Shown here piece after piece: positions 10,508-57,187 of a stretch of DNA of 64,000 bases (position 1 is its first letter; every line of letters begins with the position of its first letter). A program made the translations under genes and the position numbers. The stretch lies in NCBI RefSeq assembly GCF_041248615.1, contig NZ_CP158426.1. One strand, 5' to 3'. The DNA is from Escherichia coli. GTDB lineage: Bacteria > Pseudomonadota > Gammaproteobacteria > Enterobacterales > Enterobacteriaceae. The notes beneath the pieces are model-generated. The model was not told the DNA's origin, made no database searches, and saw only the letters and a program-made list of their open reading frames with translations.

Positions 10508-12753
<2,246 letters not shown>

Positions 12754-13354
12754 CCACTATCTGGCGTTTCAAGGGGCTGGTCCAGCTACAAATATTATTG
12801 AAAGAGATTTTTATGAAAACGAAGCTTTTTACGATTTCTATCGGCATTGATGTAATATAGAAGAGTTATATAAATTATTCAAATCAAATTTTCTATTGAA
12901 GATTTTCATTCACAGAGTGAGAAAGATGTAAAATAAAAATACAGGCTCATATATTATTACTTAACCTTACATGGATATCCTGAAATGACATTAATTATTA
13001 AGATAATAACGTTTTCATCGGTAGTAGTAGAAATAAACAAAATTTTAATTTCAAAAACTGCTTGTTTCTCGTAGTGAGGTACTTGTCTTTACTGATTCGG
13101 GTAACAGGAAAACATTTAAAATCATTCTGTTGCGCTCTTTCTGAGAGGCTGATTGCAAAATGGCATCTGAATCGATCGCAGTTGTATGACTCAGCGAGTA
13201 AGGCCAGGGAGGTGTTACCCACGAAAATATGTACGGCCCAGAACGCGCTGGAACTCTTTTGATGCTCCAGCAAGAACTTAACCGAATGCCATTGGTACGC
13301 TGCCCCACAGAAAATTCCGTCACTAATGGCGGTAGCCGACAGATTCACATGGCG

Positions 13355-13693
13355 TTACCGCAGTAAACCAAGATGGATCTTGATTGCGTCCTCAACAGAC
13401 AACATATCTGCTTTGGACAACGAGCCAATATGTGTTTTGAGACAGGACTTATCCGCCGCCATAATCTGCTCTACAATCGCTTTGCTGCTCTGACACCTAC
13501 GGTCACAACAGCCTCACTTGGATACACTCGCTCTGTGTTACTGGTCAGAGGAACGACGACTACTCGAGCGAGGTTCCTGTTTGCTGCGTCATTGCTCACG
13601 ATCACTGCCGGACATGTCTTGCGGATTTCACTGTCAACAGCAGGATCAAATTCAATCCACCACGTCTCACCTGTGCCGTCACTGCTCTGTCAT
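13355..13693 (-). pseudogene. MazF/PemK-family toxin gene remnant (frameshifted)
   Basis: Minus-strand translation gives GETWWIEFDPAVDSEIRKTCPAVIVSNDAANRNLARVVVVPLTSN... (Kid/PemK-like N-terminal core), then in another frame ...IMAADKSCLKTHIGSLSKADMLSVEDAIKIHLGLLR-stop; the ATG (MTEQ) is in a third frame. No cognate antitoxin ORF is left upstream. Confidence 0.5.
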
Positions 13694-13826
13694 CTTTCTA
13701 ACACTTTACTGTCTAACACATGTAATAAAAAAGTTATTTTTCTGCAATTCGGGCATGATATTTAATCCCACGAGCATGAAACGTGTGAATTCGCTCATCA
13801 GGTACAACAAGCAAGAGAGATAAACG

Positions 13827-15143
13827 ATGAAACCGTTACATTATACAGCTTCAGCACTGGTGCTCGGACTGACGTTAATGGGGAATGCACAGGCAGTGAC
13901 GACCATTCCGTTCTGGCACTCTATGGAAGGGGAACTGGGTAAAGAGGTGAATTCTCTGGTCCAACGTTTTAACGCCGAAAACCCGGATTACAAAATTATA
14001 CCGACTTATAAAGGCAACTACGAAGAGAGTTTAAGTGCGGGGATCGCAGCATTTCGTACCGGTAACGCTCCGGCTATTTTGCAGGTTTATGAAGTTGGCA
14101 CCGCCACCATGATGGCGTCGAAAGCCATTAAACCGGTGTATGACGTGTTTAAAGAGGCGGGGATTAACTTTGATGAGTCGCAGTTTGTGCCGACGGTTTC
14201 AGGCTACTACTCCGACAGTAAAACCGGACACTTACTCTCCCAGCCGTTCAACAGCTCGACTCCTGTTCTCTATTACAACAAAGATGCTTTCAAGAAAGCA
14301 GGATTAGACCCGGAACAGCCGCCGAAAACCTGGCAGGATCTGGCGGACTATGCCGCGAAACTGAAAGCCTCCGGTATGAAGTGCGGCTACGCCAGCGGCT
14401 GGCAGGGCTGGATCCAACTGGAAAACTTTAGCGCCTGGAACGGTCTGCCGTTTGCCAGCAAAAACAACGGCTTTGACGGCACAGATGCGGTGCTGGAGTT
14501 CAACAAGCCGGAGCAGGTGAAACACATCGCCATGCTCGAAGAGATGAACAAGAAAGGCGATTTCAGCTACGTCGGGCGTAAGGATGAATCCACCGAGAAG
14601 TTCTATAACGGTGATTGCGCAATGACGACTGCCTCTTCTGGTTCTCTTGCCAGCATTCGCGAGTACGCCAAATTCAACTACGGCGTAGGCATGATGCCTT
14701 ACGACGCTGACGCGAAAGATGCACCACAAAACGCCATTATCGGCGGAGCCAGCCTGTGGGTGATGCAGGGCAAAGATAAAGAAACGTATACCGGCGTGGC
14801 GAAGTTCCTCGACTTCCTCGCGAAGCCAGAAAATGCTGCCGAGTGGCACCAGAAAACCGGTTATCTGCCAATCACCAAAGCGGCGTATGACCTGACCCGT
14901 GAGCAGGGCTTTTACGAGAAAAACCCAGGGGCGGATATCGCGACACGTCAGATGCTGAACAAACCGTCGTTACCGTTCACCAAAGGACTACGTCTGGGCA
15001 ACATGCCGCAGATCAGAGCGATTGTGGATGAAGAGCTTGAGAGCGTGTGGACCGGTAAGAAGACGCCACAGCAGGCGCTGGATACCGCCGTTGAGCGTGG
15101 GAATCAGTTACTACGCCGCTTTGAGAAATCGACGAAGTCTTAA
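13827..15143 (+). CDS. ugpB: sn-Glycerol-3-phosphate/glycerophosphodiester-binding periplasmic protein (UgpB), orphan copy
   Basis: 438 aa with signal peptide; near-identical to K-12 UgpB as recalled; no ugpA/E/C genes follow. Confidence 0.85.
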
Positions 15144-15277
15144 CCAGTGTAATGTCGGATACGTTTCGCCTATCTGAGCTAACATCGCGTGTAGGCCGAT
15201 GTGATTGACATCTTCCTCCTTACGGCATCAACGTTCCAGACTGAGATGTACCCAGTTCCCTGGTGGAGAAGTCAGTC

Positions 15278-16190
15278 ATGAATATTAATCGTATTGGTTT
15301 CGATCTTGCCGAAAAATGTTTTTCAAATCCACGGCGTTGATCACAATGAATAGTGGTACGGAGAAAAACGCTGAGCCCTCCCCACATGATGACGTTTTTC
15401 TCCGGGCTTTCTCCCTGCCTCATCAGCATCGAAGTCTGTGGCTCTTCCCATTCTGGGCACGGGAACTCATTCCGTATGGGGCCTACCGTGCGCATTATTC
15501 CGTAGAAACTTGTCAAATCTTATCTCAAAGGTAACAAAAACGACGCTAATAATGCAGCTGCCATCTGTGAGGCCGTCAGCAGGCCCGGCATGCGATTTGT
15601 TGTTTTCATATCGGAATCCCAGCAGACGTTACAGGAAGAATACCGGGTCCGGGCCAGAATCATCCGCGAGCGAACGGCGTTGCGTAATGAAATCCGGGGG
15701 CTGTTGAGTGAATTTGGTCTGCTGCTGCCTGTGGGGATAAGGCACGTGCGTAAAATCCAGCAGGGAATACTGCCCAGGGGCAGTGGAATGACCCTTCATC
15801 CGTTTGTTGTGCGAACTGTCAGAGTAAAATGAACTCATATCGTCTCATGACCACCGTCTTCATGAGGCTGCAAGGGATGATATCCGTATTAAACAGCTGA
15901 TGGAGCTAAAAGGAGTTGGTCCCACAACAGCCTGTGCGCTGGTTGCCTGTATCGGTAATGCACATGATTTTAAAAAGGGACGGCAACTGGCAGCCTGGCT
16001 GGGCTGACGCTATCACAATACAGCAGCGGCTGAATGTCGAAGCTGGGCAGGATAACAAAAGCCGGTGATTCGTATCTGCGAATGCTTCTGGTTCAGGGGG
16101 CTCGTTCAGTACTGATTGGTGCTGAGAAAAGGACTGACTCATTCAGTCGTTGGGTCTGTTCACTGGTTGAACGCAGAGAATACTGACGCG
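15278..16190 (+). pseudogene. IS110-family transposase, degenerate (multiple frameshifts)
   Basis: N-terminus MNINRIGFDLAKNVFQIHGVD, then in other frames AAAICEAVSRPGMRFVVF... and ELKGVGPTTACALVACIGNAHDFKKGRQLAAWLG...; characteristic IS110/IS116/IS902 motifs. Confidence 0.6.
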
Positions 16191-16637
16191 CTGTTGTGGC
16201 CATCGCCGCCAGAAAGGTAAGGCTGTGCTGGGCATCATGTCATTACGGTGATGATTTCAGGCTGTATTCAGCCAGCTAAAGCACGCAGCAACCGTATGAC
16301 TATCTGATCTGCAACTCGTTGATGATAAAGTGTTAGACCCTGTGAGGTATATCTGATTATTGTACAGGATATACGTATCCGCTTAACGAACAAGAGCCTC
16401 ACGCGCGTCTTTCATCTGGGCCGAATAGATGAGATTCATCATGGTTGTTTATAGTACCGTCGTCTCTCCCCTTTATTTTTACAGAAAAGCAAACAGAAAC
16501 CATAAATACCGGCGTTGACATGGCGGGGAAGCCGGCAACGGCTATCCCTACCGTAATCATAATATTTCTGTCATTTCTGCTCCCTACAATGACGTTAGTT
16601 TTACTTCTGGGCGATAACAACGAAAGGAGAGTATGAC

Positions 16638-17981
16638 ATGCACAACTCCAAAATCCGGCTGGCTATACTGGTTGGCTGCATGGCTCTGAGCGCCAACCTG
16701 TGGGCCAAAGCGCAGCCGGTGCAGGCAACGCTGGCCGGGCATGCAATTCTGCCGGCAAAATCCGCTGTTTCAACACCGAAGGATGCGCCGGGCGATTTGC
16801 AACAGAGCGGCAAATACACCAGCGGCAAACGCGTCACCGAGCTGGGCAGCGTGGCGGGCAAATCCGCAGAACGCCTGACAGGACTCAGCCTGCCGATCAA
16901 TGGTCAGCCGTTGCAGGGCCACTCAGGTATCAAACACATGCCCGACGGTACCTATTGGGTGCTGACTGACAATGGCTTCGGCAGCAAAGCCAACTCCCCG
17001 GACGCCATGCTGTACCTCAACCAATACAAGATAGATTTCAAAGACGGCTCGGTAGTACCGCTGAAGACGCTGTTCCTGCATGATCCGGATAAAAAGGTGC
17101 CGTTCCACATCATCAACGAGAGCACCGAACTACGCTATCTGACCGGCAGCGATTTTGATCCGGAAAGCTTCCAGTTTTCCGACGATGCCTTATGGATCGG
17201 TGATGAGTTCGGTCCTTACCTGATCAAGACCGACCTGAACGGCAAGGTGCTGGCGGTGTTCGACACAGAAGTGGACGGTAAGGTGGTTAAATCGCCGGAC
17301 AACCCGACGCTGACTCTACCTAGCGCTCCGGACGGTAAGCTGAACTTCCAGGTGGCGCGTTCCAAAGGCTTTGAAGGCATGGCCATCTCGCCGGACGGCA
17401 GTAAGCTGTATCCGCTGCTGGAAGGGGCATTGTGGGACGGTGAGCAGTTCGAGAACGTTGACGGAAAACGCTACCTGCGTGTGCTGGAGTTCGATGCCAA
17501 ACAGCAGGCCTGGACTGGTCGCAGCTGGCAGTACGTGCTGGAAGACAACCAGAACGCCATCGGCGACTTCAATATGATAGATGATACCCACGGACTGGTG
17601 ATCGAGCGTGATAACGGCGAAGGCACGGCGGATAAAGCCTGCGTCGCCGGCGCGCCGACCAACAACTGCTTCAGTCAAGTAGCCAGGTTCAAACGGGTGT
17701 ATAAAATTGCTTTCTCGGACACTAACGTCGGAAAACCTGTCGAAAAACTGGGCTATATTGACCTGATGAAGATTCAGGATCCGAACAAGCTGGCACGCAA
17801 GCCGCTGAACGACGGTGTGCTGACCTTCCCGTTCTTCACCATTGAGAACGTGGATGTGGTTGACACTAACCACATCATCGTAGGCAACGATAATAACTTC
17901 CCGTTTTCCTCCAGCCGCTGGCCTAATATGGCGGATGACAACGAGTTTATTCTACTGGATGTGAAGGATTTTCTGAAGTAG
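16638..17981 (+). CDS. Secreted phytase-like esterase family protein (PF13449-like)
   Basis: 447 aa with signal peptide; repeated ...SPDG..LY...EG.. beta-propeller-like motifs recalled for the esterase-like phytase family. Confidence 0.55.
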   Translation: MHNSKIRLAILVGCMALSANLWAKAQPVQATLAGHAILPAKSAVSTPKDAPGDLQQSGKYTSGKRVTELGSVAGKSAERLTGLSLPINGQPLQGHSGIKHMPDGTYWVLTDNGFGSKANSPDAMLYLNQYKIDFKDGSVVPLKTLFLHDPDKKVPFHIINESTELRYLTGSDFDPESFQFSDDALWIGDEFGPYLIKTDLNGKVLAVFDTEVDGKVVKSPDNPTLTLPSAPDGKLNFQVARSKGFEGMAISPDGSKLYPLLEGALWDGEQFENVDGKRYLRVLEFDAKQQAWTGRSWQYVLEDNQNAIGDFNMIDDTHGLVIERDNGEGTADKACVAGAPTNNCFSQVARFKRVYKIAFSDTNVGKPVEKLGYIDLMKIQDPNKLARKPLNDGVLTFPFFTIENVDVVDTNHIIVGNDNNFPFSSSRWPNMADDNEFILLDVKDFLK

Positions 17982-18137
17982 GGGGAAGAGCATCTTACGA
18001 TACTCCTCGCTAATTTAAAAACGAACGGTGCTGAGCACCGTTTTTAATCACCTCGCCAGAACCTACCAGAATATGATGTTGGTTTATTATCACTGATTCA
18101 TGGGGAGCACCCAGCGCTTCGGCGGTTTTTTATGTCT

Positions 18138-18962
18138 TTAAAGCAGTAGCGGTAGGGTCGCGCTGGCTGTTTTCTGGCTCACCTCGCTGTACTGGTCATC
18201 CAGCGCAATCAGCGATGTGGTGAGTAGCTCTACCAACAGCATCACTCCCACTTTGGCAGTCAGCGCGCCGGCACTCAAGGGTCCTTCCGGTTTGGCCGCG
18301 ACCAGTTGAATATCACTCAGCGAAGCTAACGGACTGCGCGGTGTATTACTCAGCGCCAGTACACGCACACCTTGCTTACGCGCTAGTTTTACGACATGCA
18401 GCAGATCGCGCGTGGATCCAGAACTGGAAATCGCCACCACGAACGTGTTTTTACTAAGTGTTGTGGCGTTCATGGCAGCACGATGCATATCGCTGAACAA
18501 TTGTGCGGGTTTCCCCAGACGCAGGAGTTTATAATGTAAATACTCCCCCAGAATGGCACTGGCTGCTACGCCATAAATCTGCACTGACTGAGCCTGATGC
18601 AGTGCAAGCGCGGCTGCTTCCAGCAAGGTTCTGTCGAGTAATTTTGCTGTGTCCTGTATTGCTTGCACGGATTCATTGACCACATTGTCAATCTCATCAC
18701 CGCCGTGCTCTACAAACTGTACTTGTCGGAGATCGAGTGCCAGCGCCATTTTGAATTCGTTATAGCCCTTACACCCAAGCGTTCGGCACAGACGTGTGAC
18801 GCTAGCCTCGCTGGTGCCGCTTTCACGCGCAAGTTCGGTAATCGTCAGGTAGACAACTTTTGCCGGATCGCTAAGTACAAACTCTCCCAGCTTCTGTTGT
18901 GTTCGGCTATATCCATCAACGCTCTGGCGCAATCTCAGCAGCAGGTTTTCATTTTCTGACAT
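18138..18962 (-). CDS. RpiR/MurR-family transcriptional regulator (HTH plus SIS domain)
   Basis: 274 aa; N-terminal HTH (ITELARESGTSEASVTRLCRTLG) and C-terminal SIS-like region; divergent from the PTS EIICB gene. Confidence 0.8.
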   Translation of the reverse strand: MSENENLLLRLRQSVDGYSRTQQKLGEFVLSDPAKVVYLTITELARESGTSEASVTRLCRTLGCKGYNEFKMALALDLRQVQFVEHGGDEIDNVVNESVQAIQDTAKLLDRTLLEAAALALHQAQSVQIYGVAASAILGEYLHYKLLRLGKPAQLFSDMHRAAMNATTLSKNTFVVAISSSGSTRDLLHVVKLARKQGVRVLALSNTPRSPLASLSDIQLVAAKPEGPLSAGALTAKVGVMLLVELLTTSLIALDDQYSEVSQKTASATLPLLL

Positions 18963-19127
18963 GTAAAATCCTTAATGCGTTTATCTGTTGATAGTGTGAC
19001 GGAAAGGAGGGGATTGATGCCAGACATTTTAAAAAAGTATGATCGACTTCTTAGATTTTGATGGTGATTTTTATTTATAAGAATAATTATAGTAAAAATT
19101 TTCATCAAAAATCGAGGAGATGATAAA

Positions 19128-20684
19128 ATGATGCAAATGTTTAGCGGCGCTTCATCGGGGGGATGGTTTGAAAAAGCGCAGCGGTTCGGAAAATCCTTCA
19201 TGCTGCCGATTGCGGTATTGCCCGCAGCAGGGCTGTTATTAGGGATTGGTGGCGCGTTGTCAAATCCAAACACGTTGACGGCTTATCCGTTTTTAGATGC
19301 CGACTGGTTGCAGGCAATATTCACAATCATGACCAGCGCAGGTTCTATTGTGTTTGCCAACCTGTCGGTACTCTTTGCAGTCGGCGTCGCCGTGGGGCTG
19401 GCGAAATCGGATAAAGGCACTGCCGGGCTTGCGTCATTGCTGGCGTTTCTGGTGATGAATGCCACCATCAACGCCTTATTAACGCTCAACGGAACGCTGG
19501 CGCACAAGAACCCCGCTTCAGTTGGCCAGGGGATGACGCTTGGTATTCAGACACTGGAAACTGGTGTGTTTGGTGGGGTGGTGATTGGTCTCGTCACCTG
19601 CACTTTACATAGCCGTTTCAATAAAGTCTCACTACCTCAGTTTCTCGGTTTTTTTAGTGGTTCTCGTTTTGTACCCATTATCAGCTCCCTTGCCGCGATA
19701 GTAGTGGGTGCGGTTATGACGGTGGTGTGGCCGCATTTCCAGAAACTCATTTTTGGACTGGGCGACCTGGTGGATGCGACGGGCTATCTGGGGACGCTGT
19801 TGTACGGCTTCATCCTGCGTATGCTCGGTCCACTGGGTTTACACCATATCTTTTATTTGCCGTTCTGGACGACGGCGCTGGGCGGCAGTGAAATCGTCAA
19901 CGGCCAGTTGGTTGAAGGTACGCAGCGGATTTTCTTTGCCCAACTTGCCGATCCGAATACGCAGCAGTTCTACGCGGGTACCGCTCGCTTTATGTCCGGG
20001 CGCTTTATCACCATGATGTTTGGCCTGCTTGGCGCATGTCTGGCAATGTACCATACTGCAAAGCCGGAGAATAGAAAGGTTGTCGCCGGACTACTTTTGT
20101 CGGCAGCCCTGACCTCTTTCCTGACGGGAATCACTGAGCCTGTTGAGTTCTCCTTCCTGTTTGTCGCGCCCGTATTATACGTAATTCACGCCTTCTTCGA
20201 TGGTCTGGCGTTTATGGTCGCCCATATTTTACATATCACTATTGGGCAAACCTTTTCGGGCGGGCTTATCGATTTCCTTCTCTTCGGCGTGTTGCAGGGG
20301 GAAGCTAAAACAAACTGGATGTATGTCCCCATAGTGGGAATACCGTGGTTCTTCCTTTACTACTTTACTTTCCGCTATTTGATTAACCGCTTTGGCTGGC
20401 TGACGCCGGGGCGTGAGAACGTAACCCAGGTTGAATCCGGCCAGCCTCAGAGTGAACGCGCAGCGGCAGTCATTGCCGGGCTGGGAGGCAAAGAGAATCT
20501 GGAAGAGGTGGACTGTTGCGCCACGCGCCTGCGCGTGACGGTTAAAGAGAGCAGTAAGGTAGATGAAGCTGCGCTGAAAGTGGCCGGAGCGCGTGGCGTG
20601 ATTATTCGCGGCAACGGCGTTCAGGTGATTTATGGCCCTCATGTCACCATCATTAAAAACGAAGTCGAAGAGATTTTATCGTAA
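19128..20684 (+). CDS. PTS glucose-family EIICB component
   Basis: 518 aa; N-terminal EIIC membrane domain and C-terminal EIIB with CATRLR phosphorylation-site motif. Confidence 0.85.
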
Positions 20685-21373
20685 TGAAAACTGTACTGGA
20701 TTCCCTGAAAGGTAAATTAATCGTCTCCTGTCAGGCTCTGGAAAATGAGCCTCTACATAGTCCGTTTATTATGTCACGTATGGCGCTGGCGGCAGCACAA
20801 GGTGGTGCTGCAGGTATCCGTGCCAACAGCGTGGCGGATATTAGTGCTATCAAAGAGATTGTCTCCCTTCCGATGATAGGGATTATCAAACGCGATTACC
20901 CTGGCAGTGAGGTGTTTATCACGGCCACTCTCCGGGAAGTGGATGAGCTGATGACCGTTGAGCCGGAAATTATTGCCCTGGATGCTACTGCGCGCCCGCG
21001 CCCTGGTGGTCAGACGCTGGAAGAACTGGTCACGCAGATCCGCGCTCGCTACCCGTCCATACTTCTGATGGCAGATATAGCAACAGTAGAAGAGGCAGTG
21101 ACAGCTGAACGTCTGGGTTTTGACTGTGTGGGCACTACGCTCTACGGCTATACCGCAGAAACTGCCAGGCATGTGCTGGCGGAAAATGACTGTGGATTCT
21201 TACGTGAGGTCCTGAAAGCGGTCAGCGTTCCGGTCGTGGCGGAAGGGAATGTCGACACCCCGGAGTGCGCCGCACGTTGCCTGACATTAGGCGCTCATAC
21301 CGTGGTGGTTGGGGGGGCAATCACTCGTCCGCAGCAGATAACGACACGCTTTATTGCAGCGATCGCCTCGTAA
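20684..21373 (+). CDS. N-acetylmannosamine-6-phosphate 2-epimerase (NanE family)
   Basis: 229 aa; NanE-like TIM-barrel motifs ([15 protein letters not shown]); start overlaps the EIICB stop (translational coupling). Confidence 0.8.
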
Positions 21374-21877: not shown

Positions 21878-22216
21878 ATGAAAAAATACTCTTCTCCCGT
21901 CCTTGCACTCATTCTTGTTAGCAACAGTATGGTATCCTCCGCTGCCACAAAAGAAATCTCAAAAACAGCTTATGTCTGTAATGGAAATAAGACAATGGAG
22001 GTGGTCTATATCAACACCACTGCTGGGAACTCATATGCAGTGATTAATCAGATGGATGAGATGATACCTATGCAGCTAATGAAAATGGCCTCCGGAGCCA
22101 ATTACGAAGCCATCAATAAAAGATACTCATATAAACTGTACACAAAAGGTAAAAAAGCCAATCTGGTGGAAGGGAATGATAATCCTGTCTTAAGCAACTG
22201 TTCATCGGCCGAATGA
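21878..22216 (+). CDS. MliC-family periplasmic protein (putative C-type lysozyme inhibitor)
   Basis: 112 aa with signal peptide; pattern Y-x-C ... SGA-x-Y ... TKG ... NC consistent with MliC (YdhA) fold motifs. Confidence 0.5.
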   Translation: MKKYSSPVLALILVSNSMVSSAATKEISKTAYVCNGNKTMEVVYINTTAGNSYAVINQMDEMIPMQLMKMASGANYEAINKRYSYKLYTKGKKANLVEGNDNPVLSNCSSAE

Positions 22217-23089: not shown

Positions 23090-24328
23090 TCAGAACTCAA
23101 AATTCACACCAGCATTCCACGATGCGGATGACCCACCTGCAGCAACTGCAACTTTTCCTGCCACATTCTCTGTGAAACGGTAGCCCACGCCCACCGCAAT
23201 GGCCTGCTCATCACGGTAACCACCAACGGCTGCTGTCGCGTTAAATTTTCCAACACTGTATGGCTGGAAAAGACCTGCCAGTGCCGCGCTCTGGGCTGCA
23301 CTCTCCCTTAACTCCTTCCGGTTCTCTTTAATCTGCTCCTGCATATTATTCATTCTCTCTGTCGCCATCTTCTGCCAGGCTTCCGTCAAATCCAGACGAT
23401 GACTGTTATTCCTTATCGCTGCTGTATTTGAGGCTATTGCTGCATCCGTCTGCGCCCTGTTCTTCACAAGCACATCGCTGAGATGTTCTGCCTGGCTTTT
23501 CGCTTCTTTACGGGCATCCCGTACACTTTTATCTGTATAAGCCCGGGAAACCTGAACTGTTTCATCCGCTTTTTCTTTTATTTCATCCTGAAGAGCAAGA
23601 GAAGATGCATCCGTATACGCCACCGCTGCCGATGTGCCTGCAATAATATCCCTGCTGAGTTCAGCATGAACTGTTGAAAGACGTTTATCTGTCTCGTCAA
23701 TTCTTTCATTCGTCTGCAACAAAAAGACCTGTGCATCATCAAATCGTTCATTCAGTTGCCCTACCGTCGCTGCATCTGTGTTATTGATACCATCAGACAC
23801 ATTTATAATCCGGCGGGTTTCCGGTGCTCCTTTGACACTCTCTCCATATCCCTCAGGCCCGGCACCAACAGATACCACGTTATTTTCTCCCGACACCTGT
23901 GAGCCATGGCCCAGAGCTACAGAACTGGTAGAATCCTGCACAGATGAAAACGCACCAATTGCCGAGCTCTGACGAGAAGAAATAAGTGACGCTTCTTTTC
24001 CTGCAACAGTCCCCCATTCAGAGTCAGCAATAAGTGCATCATGCCCCAGACTCACACTTCCCGGAGAGTTCACAACACCAGAATTATTCCCCAAAAGCAC
24101 AGTCCTGTTTGAGTCTAATAAAAAAGAATCATCACCAATCAACCATACATTTCTTACTTTATCAATCGAACGGCCAGCTACTGATTCTCCAACAAGAAAG
24201 CTATTATCTTCGCCAGGTTGAATCGGTCCGATTAAAATATCCTGAGCCTGAGCCTGAGCCGAGAGCAGCAGGGCCACACTCACTGCCAGCGCGCTTTTCT
24301 TTAAAAAAGCATCACGTCTTTTAAGCAT
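23090..24328 (-). CDS. Trimeric autotransporter adhesin (YadA-like anchor)
   Basis: Start at MLKRRDAFLKK with AGGAGA ribosome-binding site; signal peptide; Ser/Gly-rich head repeats; long coiled-coil stalk; C-terminal YadA-type membrane anchor ending ...AGVNFEF. Confidence 0.8.
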   Translation of the reverse strand: MLKRRDAFLKKSALAVSVALLLSAQAQAQDILIGPIQPGEDNSFLVGESVAGRSIDKVRNVWLIGDDSFLLDSNRTVLLGNNSGVVNSPGSVSLGHDALIADSEWGTVAGKEASLISSRQSSAIGAFSSVQDSTSSVALGHGSQVSGENNVVSVGAGPEGYGESVKGAPETRRIINVSDGINNTDAATVGQLNERFDDAQVFLLQTNERIDETDKRLSTVHAELSRDIIAGTSAAVAYTDASSLALQDEIKEKADETVQVSRAYTDKSVRDARKEAKSQAEHLSDVLVKNRAQTDAAIASNTAAIRNNSHRLDLTEAWQKMATERMNNMQEQIKENRKELRESAAQSAALAGLFQPYSVGKFNATAAVGGYRDEQAIAVGVGYRFTENVAGKVAVAAGGSSASWNAGVNFEF

Positions 24329-56002: not shown

Positions 56003-57187
56003 TTAACTTTCCCGGCTGGAGAGTGAATCAATGTAATCAGCGTACCATTGCATCATTTCACGGCGGCCATCGAGATACAGGGCATGATTATAGGTACCCC
56101 TGATGGAATTTTTATCCACATGAGCTAACTGCATTTCAATCCAGGCGGAGTTAAAGCCTTGTTCATGCAGAATTGTACTCATGGTGTGTCTGAAACCATG
56201 CCCTGTGAGTCTTCCCTTATATCCAAGTAATTCAATTACTTGGTTAATGCTTTCCTTACTAATTGGTTTGCGGGGATCATTTCTACCGATAAAGACTAGG
56301 GGATGATGTTTTGAGATTGGTTCAAGCTGCTTAAATAGCATAATAACCTGCTCAGAGAGCGGCACAATATGAGGTCGCTTCATCTTCATTACTTCTGCCG
56401 GGATCTCCCACAATTTTGTCTCAAAATCGATATCTTCCCAGCGTGCAAAACGCAGTTCTTGTGTTCGTACGCCGGTTAACATAATGATCTGAGTAGCTGT
56501 CTTAGTGATTATACTTCCGGTATAACCCGCCAGATCGTTGAGGAAGTGGGGAAGTTCATTAGCAGTAAGAAAGGGAAAATGTACTTTTTTCGGTGTAGCT
56601 AAAGCACTGGCAAGATCGGGGGCTGGGTTATAGTCTGCCCGGCCAGTAACAATTGCATAGCGGAACACCTCACCACAGCGCTGGCGTACCTTGCGCATTT
56701 TCTCCAGAGCTCCACGTTTTTCCATTTTACGCAGTGCTTCCAGTAACTCCATTGGTTTGATTTCGGCAATAGGGCGCTTGCCAATGTAGGGAAAAATGTC
56801 TTTTTCAAAGGTATCAATGATTTCATCACGATAGCGTAATGACCACCGATCGGCTTTTGACTGGTGCCATTCGCGAGCAATAGCCTCGAACGTATTTTTC
56901 AGACTTATTTGCTGCGCGATTTTTTCTTCCTTTTTTGCCTCCCCTGGATCGCCTCCAGCAGCGAGGAGTTTCCTGGCTTCACTGCGTTTCTCGCGAGCAT
57001 CGGCTAGCGTTACATCGGGGTATACGCCAATAGAAAGCATCTTTTCTTTACCAGCAAAGCGGTACTTCATGCGCCAGTATTTAGAACCATTAGTGTTAAT
57101 CAGTAGATACATACCGCCGCCATCAGCAAGCTTATAGGGTTTGTCTTTGGGTTTTGCGGTTTTCACTTTGATATCGGTTAATGCCAT
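56003..57187 (-). CDS. P4-type tyrosine integrase (selC-associated)
   Basis: 394 aa; N-terminal MALTDIKVK...; C-terminal catalytic region with R...HGFRHT...Y; lies 300 bp from the selC 3' end. Confidence 0.9.
   Translation of the reverse strand: MALTDIKVKTAKPKDKPYKLADGGGMYLLINTNGSKYWRMKYRFAGKEKMLSIGVYPDVTLADAREKRSEARKLLAAGGDPGEAKKEEKIAQQISLKNTFEAIAREWHQSKADRWSLRYRDEIIDTFEKDIFPYIGKRPIAEIKPMELLEALRKMEKRGALEKMRKVRQRCGEVFRYAIVTGRADYNPAPDLASALATPKKVHFPFLTANELPHFLNDLAGYTGSIITKTATQIIMLTGVRTQELRFARWEDIDFETKLWEIPAEVMKMKRPHIVPLSEQVIMLFKQLEPISKHHPLVFIGRNDPRKPISKESINQVIELLGYKGRLTGHGFRHTMSTILHEQGFNSAWIEMQLAHVDKNSIRGTYNHALYLDGRREMMQWYADYIDSLSSRES

Follow-up and report, generated by a model that had tools for sequence, protein, structure and literature searches.

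A solitary ugpB gene, which encodes the binding protein of the Ugp importer, is carried by a genomic island in a 64,000-nucleotide stretch of an Escherichia coli genome (contig NZ_CP158426.1; this whole stretch is called the window below). It lies in a cargo block of 5,046 bp (13038-18083), 99.8-100% shared with other E. coli, together with the remnant of a MazF/PemK-family toxin gene, a dead insertion sequence (IS) of the IS110 family and the gene of an exported phytase-like protein. These four features lie where an initial annotation of the window had placed them, as judged from profile matches, and RefSeq annotates them alike in identical DNA. That the anatomy of the block is that of a mosaic, and not that of an evolved operon, is well supported. 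We interpret the block, with a confidence a little better than even, as an accidental mosaic built by ISs and carried as cargo of a selC island, in which PhoB would induce the two intact genes, UgpB would feed the UgpAEC permease of the host and the phytase-like protein would be a propeller hydrolase. The block is real and fairly ordinary, all its parts being of known kinds, and current understanding is not overturned. New here are that ugpB is of foreign origin, that the IS110 cut was targeted to a repetitive extragenic palindromic (REP) sequence, that the IS is chimeric, that a 5-kb unit is bracketed by IS1 and that a protein family as yet uncharacterised has a Pho-type promoter.

Integrity and origin of the island ugpB gene

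The ugpB gene (13827-15143, + strand) is an uninterrupted open reading frame (ORF) of 438 codons. Its product matches the UgpB equivalog NF008211 (NCBIfam) over its full length, with 932.6 bits for a cutoff of 411, and the solved E. coli UgpB structure 4AQ4 with E = 5e-282. No inactivating change was found on alignment, and ugpA, ugpE and ugpC do not adjoin the gene, which is followed by the IS110 remnant; the earlier description of an intact ugpB deprived of its permease genes is thereby borne out. The sole ugpAEC of the genome is that of the native locus. The signal peptide cleavage site, between ...GNAQA and VTT, is retained in the island protein, and so are Y42, E66, W169, W172 and R374 (mature numbering), all identical to K-12. 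E66, W169 and an arginine are glycerol-3-phosphate contacts in E. coli UgpB (structural comparison, bioRxiv 10.1101/529602). The island and K-12 proteins differ at 12 of 438 residues, with ten changes confined to the island lineage. Given this 97% protein identity and the conservation of E66, W169 and R374, the island UgpB could plausibly pair with the chromosomal UgpAEC.

The source genome has an intact native ugpBAECQ operon, adjoining livF and 322 kb from the block. The two ugpB copies of the strain differ at 69 of 1317 nt and at 14 residues (94.8% identity of the coding sequences), and the entire stretch 13000-18200, with the same junctions, recurs in 200 of 5,426 complete E. coli genomes, which amounts to about 200 independent complete assemblies of this 5.2-kb segment. 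These three observations refute two ideas for which nothing speaks beyond the gene name: that misassembly or rearrangement had moved the native ugp locus here, and that the strain had recently duplicated its own ugpB. The first of these had been named in the initial annotation as a finding that would overturn its reading.

The same annotation had proposed to date the duplication by nucleotide comparison with the chromosomal ugpB. The comparison was made and gave a synonymous divergence (dS) of about 0.21, with the 69 differences in 1317 nt mentioned above, that is, the divergence of a xenolog and not of a datable copy. Compared with K-12, the island gene has a dS of 0.215 and a ratio of nonsynonymous to synonymous divergence (dN/dS) of 0.064; its dS is 0.254 with E. 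albertii and 0.248 with a representative of another Escherichia species. No match to the island ugpB in the 95-99% identity band was found among complete E. coli genomes. Since the dS with K-12 is about as large as that with E. albertii, the gene came, as far as divergence can tell, from another Escherichia lineage: it is a xenolog rather than the product of a duplication within E. coli. A search for the donor in genome contigs returned, among the matches listed, two Escherichia species with 92-93% nucleotide identity. A metagenome scan returned no island-type ugpB allele with an uninterrupted REP, and the 90% protein cluster of ugpB, which mixes many genera and even lists UgpA entries, gave no resolution of the donor.

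Junctions of the ugp segment

The ugp-derived segment (13666-15198, + strand) is 93.3% identical to K-12 over 1,533 nt. Homology spans from 157 bp upstream of the ugpB start to 55 bp past its stop codon, with a sharp break at both ends.

On the left, the segment abuts the toxin remnant (13355-13680, - strand), which has one frameshift, GETWWIEFDP...VRAAKRL* being read in one frame and AIVEQIMAAD...HLGLLR* in another. A 44-amino-acid ORF of this remnant matches Pfam PemK_toxin with E = 2e-4 and 21.8 bits, for a cutoff of 23.1, and with its two frames joined the remnant reaches 37 bits with MazF NF007386, for a cutoff of 120; it is not an intact toxin ORF. The junction lies at about 13666-13672, across a short shared CTCACC. 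The toxin gene lacks its start codon and first codons, since this is where the ugp-derived DNA starts, and there is no antitoxin ORF beside the remnant, the upstream side of which is the ugpB promoter segment from 13666. The arrangement shows an illegitimate junction, which removed the start of the toxin gene and its upstream, antitoxin side. The initial reading of a frameshifted toxin gene on the opposite strand without antitoxin was therefore correct, except that the remnant ends at 13680 and not at 13693 and that it has also lost its beginning. In another variant of the island (locus L087), a frameshifted gene for an EptA-like phosphoethanolamine transferase and a major facilitator superfamily transporter gene lie to the left of the block (2823-4250), this left-hand DNA being joined at window position 13403 through an IS3 element.

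On the right, ugpB is followed by the left half of a REP (15160-15198, + strand), which ends ...GTGTAGGCCG and is directly followed by the left end of the IS110-family element, ATGTGATTGAC... This element (15199-16533, + strand) is dead and chimeric, with a 5' part that extends to about 15895 and a 3' part from 15896 to 16533. Its transposase remnant changes frame at least twice and has three in-frame stops among its first 75 codons; a tblastn comparison with WP_001398381 nevertheless covered the full length, amino acids 1-340, in three frames, and RefSeq labels it an IS110 family pseudogene. The multiple frameshifts had been noticed in the initial annotation; the boundaries given there need correction, as the transposase remnant extends to 16279 instead of 16190, within a longer IS remnant that combines two elements.

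The 5' part is 85-88% identical to an element inserted in a REP in E. coli E2348/69 and, besides this block, was found only in eight other genomes, at 80-90% identity. The 3' part shares 91% identity with an IS110 element that is common on plasmids, the 5' part of which is only 36% identical in protein, and this second element has its right end 104 bp ahead of the phytase-like start codon. The related element of E2348/69 has the identical REP junction, GTAGGCCG followed by ATGTGAT (i.e. ...GCGTAGGCCG joined to ATGTGATGGAC...), and its right end is flanked by the other REP half, GATAAGACG... Since the same REP junction is found here and in E2348/69, this type of IS inserts site-specifically into REP. 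In a derivative of E2348/69 (L102, NZ_LT903847.1, about 2500-3950), a frameshifted IS110-family element is present in a REP between kgtP and an rRNA operon, with GTAGGCCG to its left and GATAAGACG to its right, which shows that this IS group targets REP. In strain NRZ14408, the native ugpB-ugpA spacer (L109, 5608-5782) is 175 nt long and contains a different palindromic repeat, not a K-12-type REP; the donor of the island ugpB therefore had a spacer like that of K-12, unlike the present host. A search of 12500-19200 against Rfam (E <= 1) found no RNA family, and in particular no bridge-RNA family at the IS110 remnant.

The junction in the REP shows an insertion of an IS110-family element that severed ugpB from ugpA in the donor, and the simplest reading of the chimera is that the severed gene was joined to the phytase-like gene via recombination between two IS110-family copies. 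The history of the block reads as follows. In another Escherichia lineage, a REP-targeting IS110-family element inserted between ugpB and ugpA and split ugpB, with its Pho promoter, from the genes of the permease. This IS copy is now continued by the 3' part of another, different IS110-family element, which lay some 100 bp ahead of a phytase-like gene of the Serratia type, so that a dead hybrid links both genes. The ugp piece was fused to the toxin gene by an illegitimate junction, with loss of the toxin start and of the antitoxin side. The resulting 5-kb block resides in the island, is present at other chromosomal sites between IS1 copies, and is found in trimmed form on plasmids. Both ends of the ugp piece being illegitimate or IS junctions, the initial proposal of a capture by recombination holds. 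Whatever the function of its genes, the locus illustrates cleanly how an operon is cut apart by a REP-targeting IS110 element and how genes are then fused by recombination between ISs.

The phytase-like gene

The second intact gene of the block (16638-17981, + strand) encodes a 447-amino-acid protein with a predicted Sec signal peptide, its N-terminus being of the Sec type, MHNSKIRLAILVGCMALSANLWA. A reading of this N-terminus as that of a lipoprotein (LVGC lipobox) was rejected by judgement, the hydrophobic stretch before the cysteine being only five residues long. The ORF matches Pfam PF13449 ('Esterase-like activity of phytase') with E = 5e-61 and 207.4 bits, for a gathering threshold of 27.6. 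In the family alignment Cys335 and Cys344 and many Asp, Glu and Asn residues are invariant. The structure model is all-beta (predicted local distance difference test, pLDDT, 76; predicted template-modelling score, pTM, 0.81), and its top matches in a fold search of the PDB are propeller proteins, the best neighbours being bacterial glutaminyl cyclase and YjiK. Bacillus phytase is only distantly similar to the model, and no close similarity to solved phytases was found in sequence or structure. Of the designation 'secreted phytase-like esterase' used in the initial annotation, the family match and the Sec-type N-terminus are upheld; esterase is a Pfam name only.

Homologues of the protein, about 70% identical, are spread across Enterobacterales and Betaproteobacteria, the closest named ones being those of Serratia (about 85%). 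In Serratia, Pectobacterium, Providencia and Halotalea it is a solitary gene, its neighbours being unrelated. An allele 93.5% identical to that of the island is carried by the conjugative IncF plasmid pRM14721 (L101, NZ_CP027106.1, 6094-9691), where it is convergent with a gene for a PhoX-family phosphatase. At locus L093 (8812-10156) the gene has a 1-nt insertion that shifts the frame, and at locus L085 (11375-12685) its first 33 nt were lost to the insertion of an IS66-family element.

A literature search found no characterised member of PF13449, and 'glycerophosphodiester phosphodiesterase' is no more than an annotation name borne by some homologues. Pseudomonas GlpQ was considered as a characterised relative and rejected, as GlpQ proteins are enzymes with a glycerophosphodiester phosphodiesterase (GDPD) domain and not PF13449 proteins. 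Unannotated beta-propeller proteins can be phosphatases, as was found for Psip1 (PMC11098088). The phytase-like protein would be a periplasmic, probably metal-dependent beta-propeller hydrolase of some phosphoester.

Pho-type promoters in the block

The tandem Pho boxes of the island ugpB promoter (13676-13726, + strand; CCGTCACTGCTCTGTCATCTTTCTAACACTTTACTGTCTAACACATGTAAT) were identified by alignment with K-12. They align base for base with the upstream region of K-12 ugpB and are slightly nearer the CTGTCAT consensus.

A putative Pho-type promoter also precedes the phytase-like gene (16557-16590, + strand), where TCATAATATTTCTGTCAT is separated by 10 nt from TACAAT. A Pho box located 10 nt upstream of the -10 hexamer is a signature of the Pho regulon. 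In six of seven phytase-like homologues (six genera), the island gene included, the motif [CT]TGTCA[TC]-N9-11-TAnnnT precedes the start codon by 66-82 nt; the spacer is 10 nt in all six, and the seventh homologue has one mismatch. A promoter of the form CTGTCAT-N10-(-10) is kept in the homologues of Serratia, Pectobacterium, Providencia and Halotalea as well as in the island. In the whole window, both strands considered, the motif occurs three times. A scan for generic sigma-70 promoters and terminators gave counts at chance level. Together, the two promoters make both ugpB and the phytase-like gene look controlled by phosphate starvation.

The nature of the ugpB promoter also bears on a proposal in which transport plays no part, namely that the solo UgpB would have been kept as a permease-independent, bile-responsive periplasmic chaperone that aids the gut passage of extraintestinal pathogenic E. 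coli (ExPEC). UgpB free of glycerol-3-phosphate prevents bile-induced protein aggregation, and its overexpression gives bile resistance (review PMC8144458). This activity is independent of UgpAEC, which would explain the use of a binding protein alone, and the hosts of the block are gut colonisers of birds and humans. We consider this proposal very unlikely: the promoter retained is a Pho promoter, the native ugpB would already be able to serve, and the sequence does not separate a chaperone role from a transport role.

Spread of the block and its IS1-bracketed versions

Among the genomes sampled, the hosts of the block were mostly poultry, with some humans and other animals. At other chromosomal sites, in loci L085, L089 and L091, precisely 13038-18083 is found between two inverted IS1 copies; there is no such IS1 bracket in the window. 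Shorter IS1-bracketed pieces were also observed, which share the same right boundary (15722-18083 or 15910-18083). The 9-bp target-site duplication was not found around two of the IS1-bracketed units, the flanks of L089 and L091 being mismatched. Given these flanks, transposition of the IS1-bracketed block as a unit is no more than a possibility.

Possible roles of the block

In the interpretation given at the outset, PhoB would switch on both ugpB and the phytase-like gene under phosphate starvation. The island UgpB would be exported to the periplasm, where it would bind glycerol-3-phosphate or glycerophosphodiesters and deliver them to the host UgpAEC, raising the dosage of binding protein, and the phytase-like protein would act there as a hydrolase, probably metal-dependent, of the propeller type on a phosphoester. 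The theme of phosphoester scavenging, which had been suggested in the initial annotation, would follow from the Pho-type promoters and from the phoX neighbour on one plasmid.

Several observations weigh against this functional reading. Shorter IS1-bracketed pieces are present on E. coli and E. fergusonii plasmids and contain only the phytase-like gene, ugpB having been dropped; the constant cargo of the IS1 units is thus the phytase-like gene, ugpB being present in the longest form only. No ugp genes were found beside native phytase-like homologues in the contexts examined. From these two facts the adjacency of ugpB and the phytase-like gene looks accidental, rather than that of an evolved pair. 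In the phytase-like promoter the proximal half-site is perfect and the distal one is out of register, with 3/7 matches, which makes Pho regulation of the island allele less certain. A Foldseek search of the PDB with the phytase-like model returned generic propellers only (template-modelling score about 0.3), none of the solved enzymes being close enough to indicate its chemistry, and the gene is broken in some strains. Branch reconstruction assigned about 12 nonsynonymous and about 31 synonymous changes to the island ugpB, and about 2 and about 22, respectively, to K-12; constraint on the island branch is, by this count, relaxed 4- to 5-fold compared with the K-12 branch, at a rate that is still far from neutral. 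Finally, the divergence among copies of the block does not exceed 0.2%; ugpB could consequently be a young neutral passenger, and its intactness is weak evidence of a role. The island ugpB loci fetched by exact protein match are identical in protein by construction and so carry no information on selection.

The main rival to a functional reading takes up these last points: ugpB would be a neutral passenger without role, carried along by the IS assembly and intact as the block is young, any selection bearing on the phytase-like gene or on neighbouring island genes. The accidental nature of both junctions of the ugp piece, the near identity of the copies, the elevated nonsynonymous rate, the loss of ugpB from the plasmid versions, which have retained the phytase-like gene, and the presence of a native ugpB in the genome all agree with it. 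We nevertheless regard a neutral ugpB as possible but doubtful, since its promoter, signal peptide and ligand residues are intact while two flanking genes are thoroughly decayed, since dN/dS, at about 0.1 for the island branch, still lies well below 1, and since the longest version, which bears ugpB, is by far the commonest (about 200 chromosomes, compared with 7 plasmids for the shorter ones).

At the other extreme, the PF13449 propeller might be a periplasmic phosphodiesterase of the Pho regulon that releases the ligand of UgpB (glycerol-3-phosphate or a related ester), the block then being a portable 'release and capture' module for any host UgpAEC, which would aid phosphorus acquisition in host tissues. 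Such a tight coupling is quite unlikely in our view. Returning to the IS-built mosaic that we favour, expression of both genes would provide extra scavenging of organic phosphate, or bile tolerance, on a mobile 5-kb unit, and could aid fitness in the gut or in tissues. A testable lead is offered by the PF13449 family itself, which is widespread, highly conserved and exported, has a conserved promoter of the Pho type and accompanies ugpB or phoX on mobile DNA.

The selC island

The window is 100% identical, end to end, to the corresponding region of E. coli NRZ14408 (NZ_LT599825.1, 64001-128000) and contains the complete island. One end of the island is flanked by the core genes yicS, nlpA, yicL and setC; at the other end are tRNA-Sec (57487-57581) and a tyrosine integrase gene (56003-57187), followed by yicJ, yicI, yicH and xanP. 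The same island was found in avian and human extraintestinal pathogenic strains, for example in the avian pathogenic E. coli (APEC) strain E19035 (O2:K1:H5), also with tRNA-Sec and integrase; the insertion is thus of the selC type known from ExPEC and APEC, with an integrase adjoining tRNA-Sec.

Directly after the block (18138-21373) are genes for an RpiR/MurR regulator, an EIICB component of the glucose/maltose type of the phosphotransferase system (PTS) and a NanE-like N-acetylmannosamine-6-phosphate epimerase, which are probably the carbohydrate-uptake genes aec-35 to aec-37 reported for AGI-3. Further cargo consists, in order, of a CbtA/YeeU toxin-antitoxin pair (8316-9151), a c-type lysozyme inhibitor (21878-22216), a YadA-like adhesin (23090-24328) and a TonB-dependent receptor with a DUF4198 protein (42525-45305). 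At the left edge of the window (1-2331), yicS is adjoined by genes for a type III secretion translocon subunit of the YopB/SseC family and for a chaperone of the SycD/LcrH type; in the corresponding region of APEC E19035 this segment found no long match. Two copies of ISEc31 (10508-11765 and 40982-42239), 1,258 bp each and 100% identical, are present in inverted orientation, and an old DDE-transposase pseudogene is split, relative to APEC E19035, into 11770-12693 and 42242-42358.

Comparison with known systems

The window island differs from that of APEC E19035 by the inversion of about 29 kb between the two ISEc31 copies, the ugpB block included. AGI-3, the selC island of APEC BEN2908 (Chouikha et al. 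2006, J Bacteriol 188:977; GenBank AY857617), is likewise inserted, according to the papers that cite it, at tRNA-Sec and has a tyrosine integrase; its hosts are O2:K1:H5 strains and further ExPEC of birds and humans. The related selC islands of sequence type 95 (ST95) and other ExPEC are described with the same type of insertion. On this basis the window island presumably belongs with AGI-3. A fos locus is reported for AGI-3 (PMC3325963); no fos-type genes are annotated in the window. The tkt1 island was rejected as a described counterpart, as it sits between metE and ysgA and is a different island.

The IS110 remnant resembles elements of the IS621 type, which reportedly target REP, in that its left end abuts GTAGGCCG of a REP, at the junction also seen for the related copy in E2348/69. 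Unlike these elements it is dead and chimeric, and the N-terminus of its transposase is, by reading alone, not close to IS621.

The phytase-like protein shares with the beta-propeller phytases (Bacillus PhyC/TS-Phy, PDB 1POO) and with PhoX/Psip1-type phosphatases the features of an exported propeller, invariant acidic residues and an apparent link with phosphate starvation. By description only, its gene can be set beside orf34 of the Shigella flexneri SRL pathogenicity island, where no ugpB is mentioned.

Lastly, the island gene shares its cleavage site, ligand residues and tandem Pho boxes with the native E. coli ugpBAECQ operon, which encodes a Pho-regulated ATP-binding cassette (ABC) importer of glycerol-3-phosphate and glycerophosphodiesters; in contrast with that operon, the island holds ugpB alone, ugpA, ugpE, ugpC and ugpQ having been severed by the IS110 insertion in the intergenic REP.

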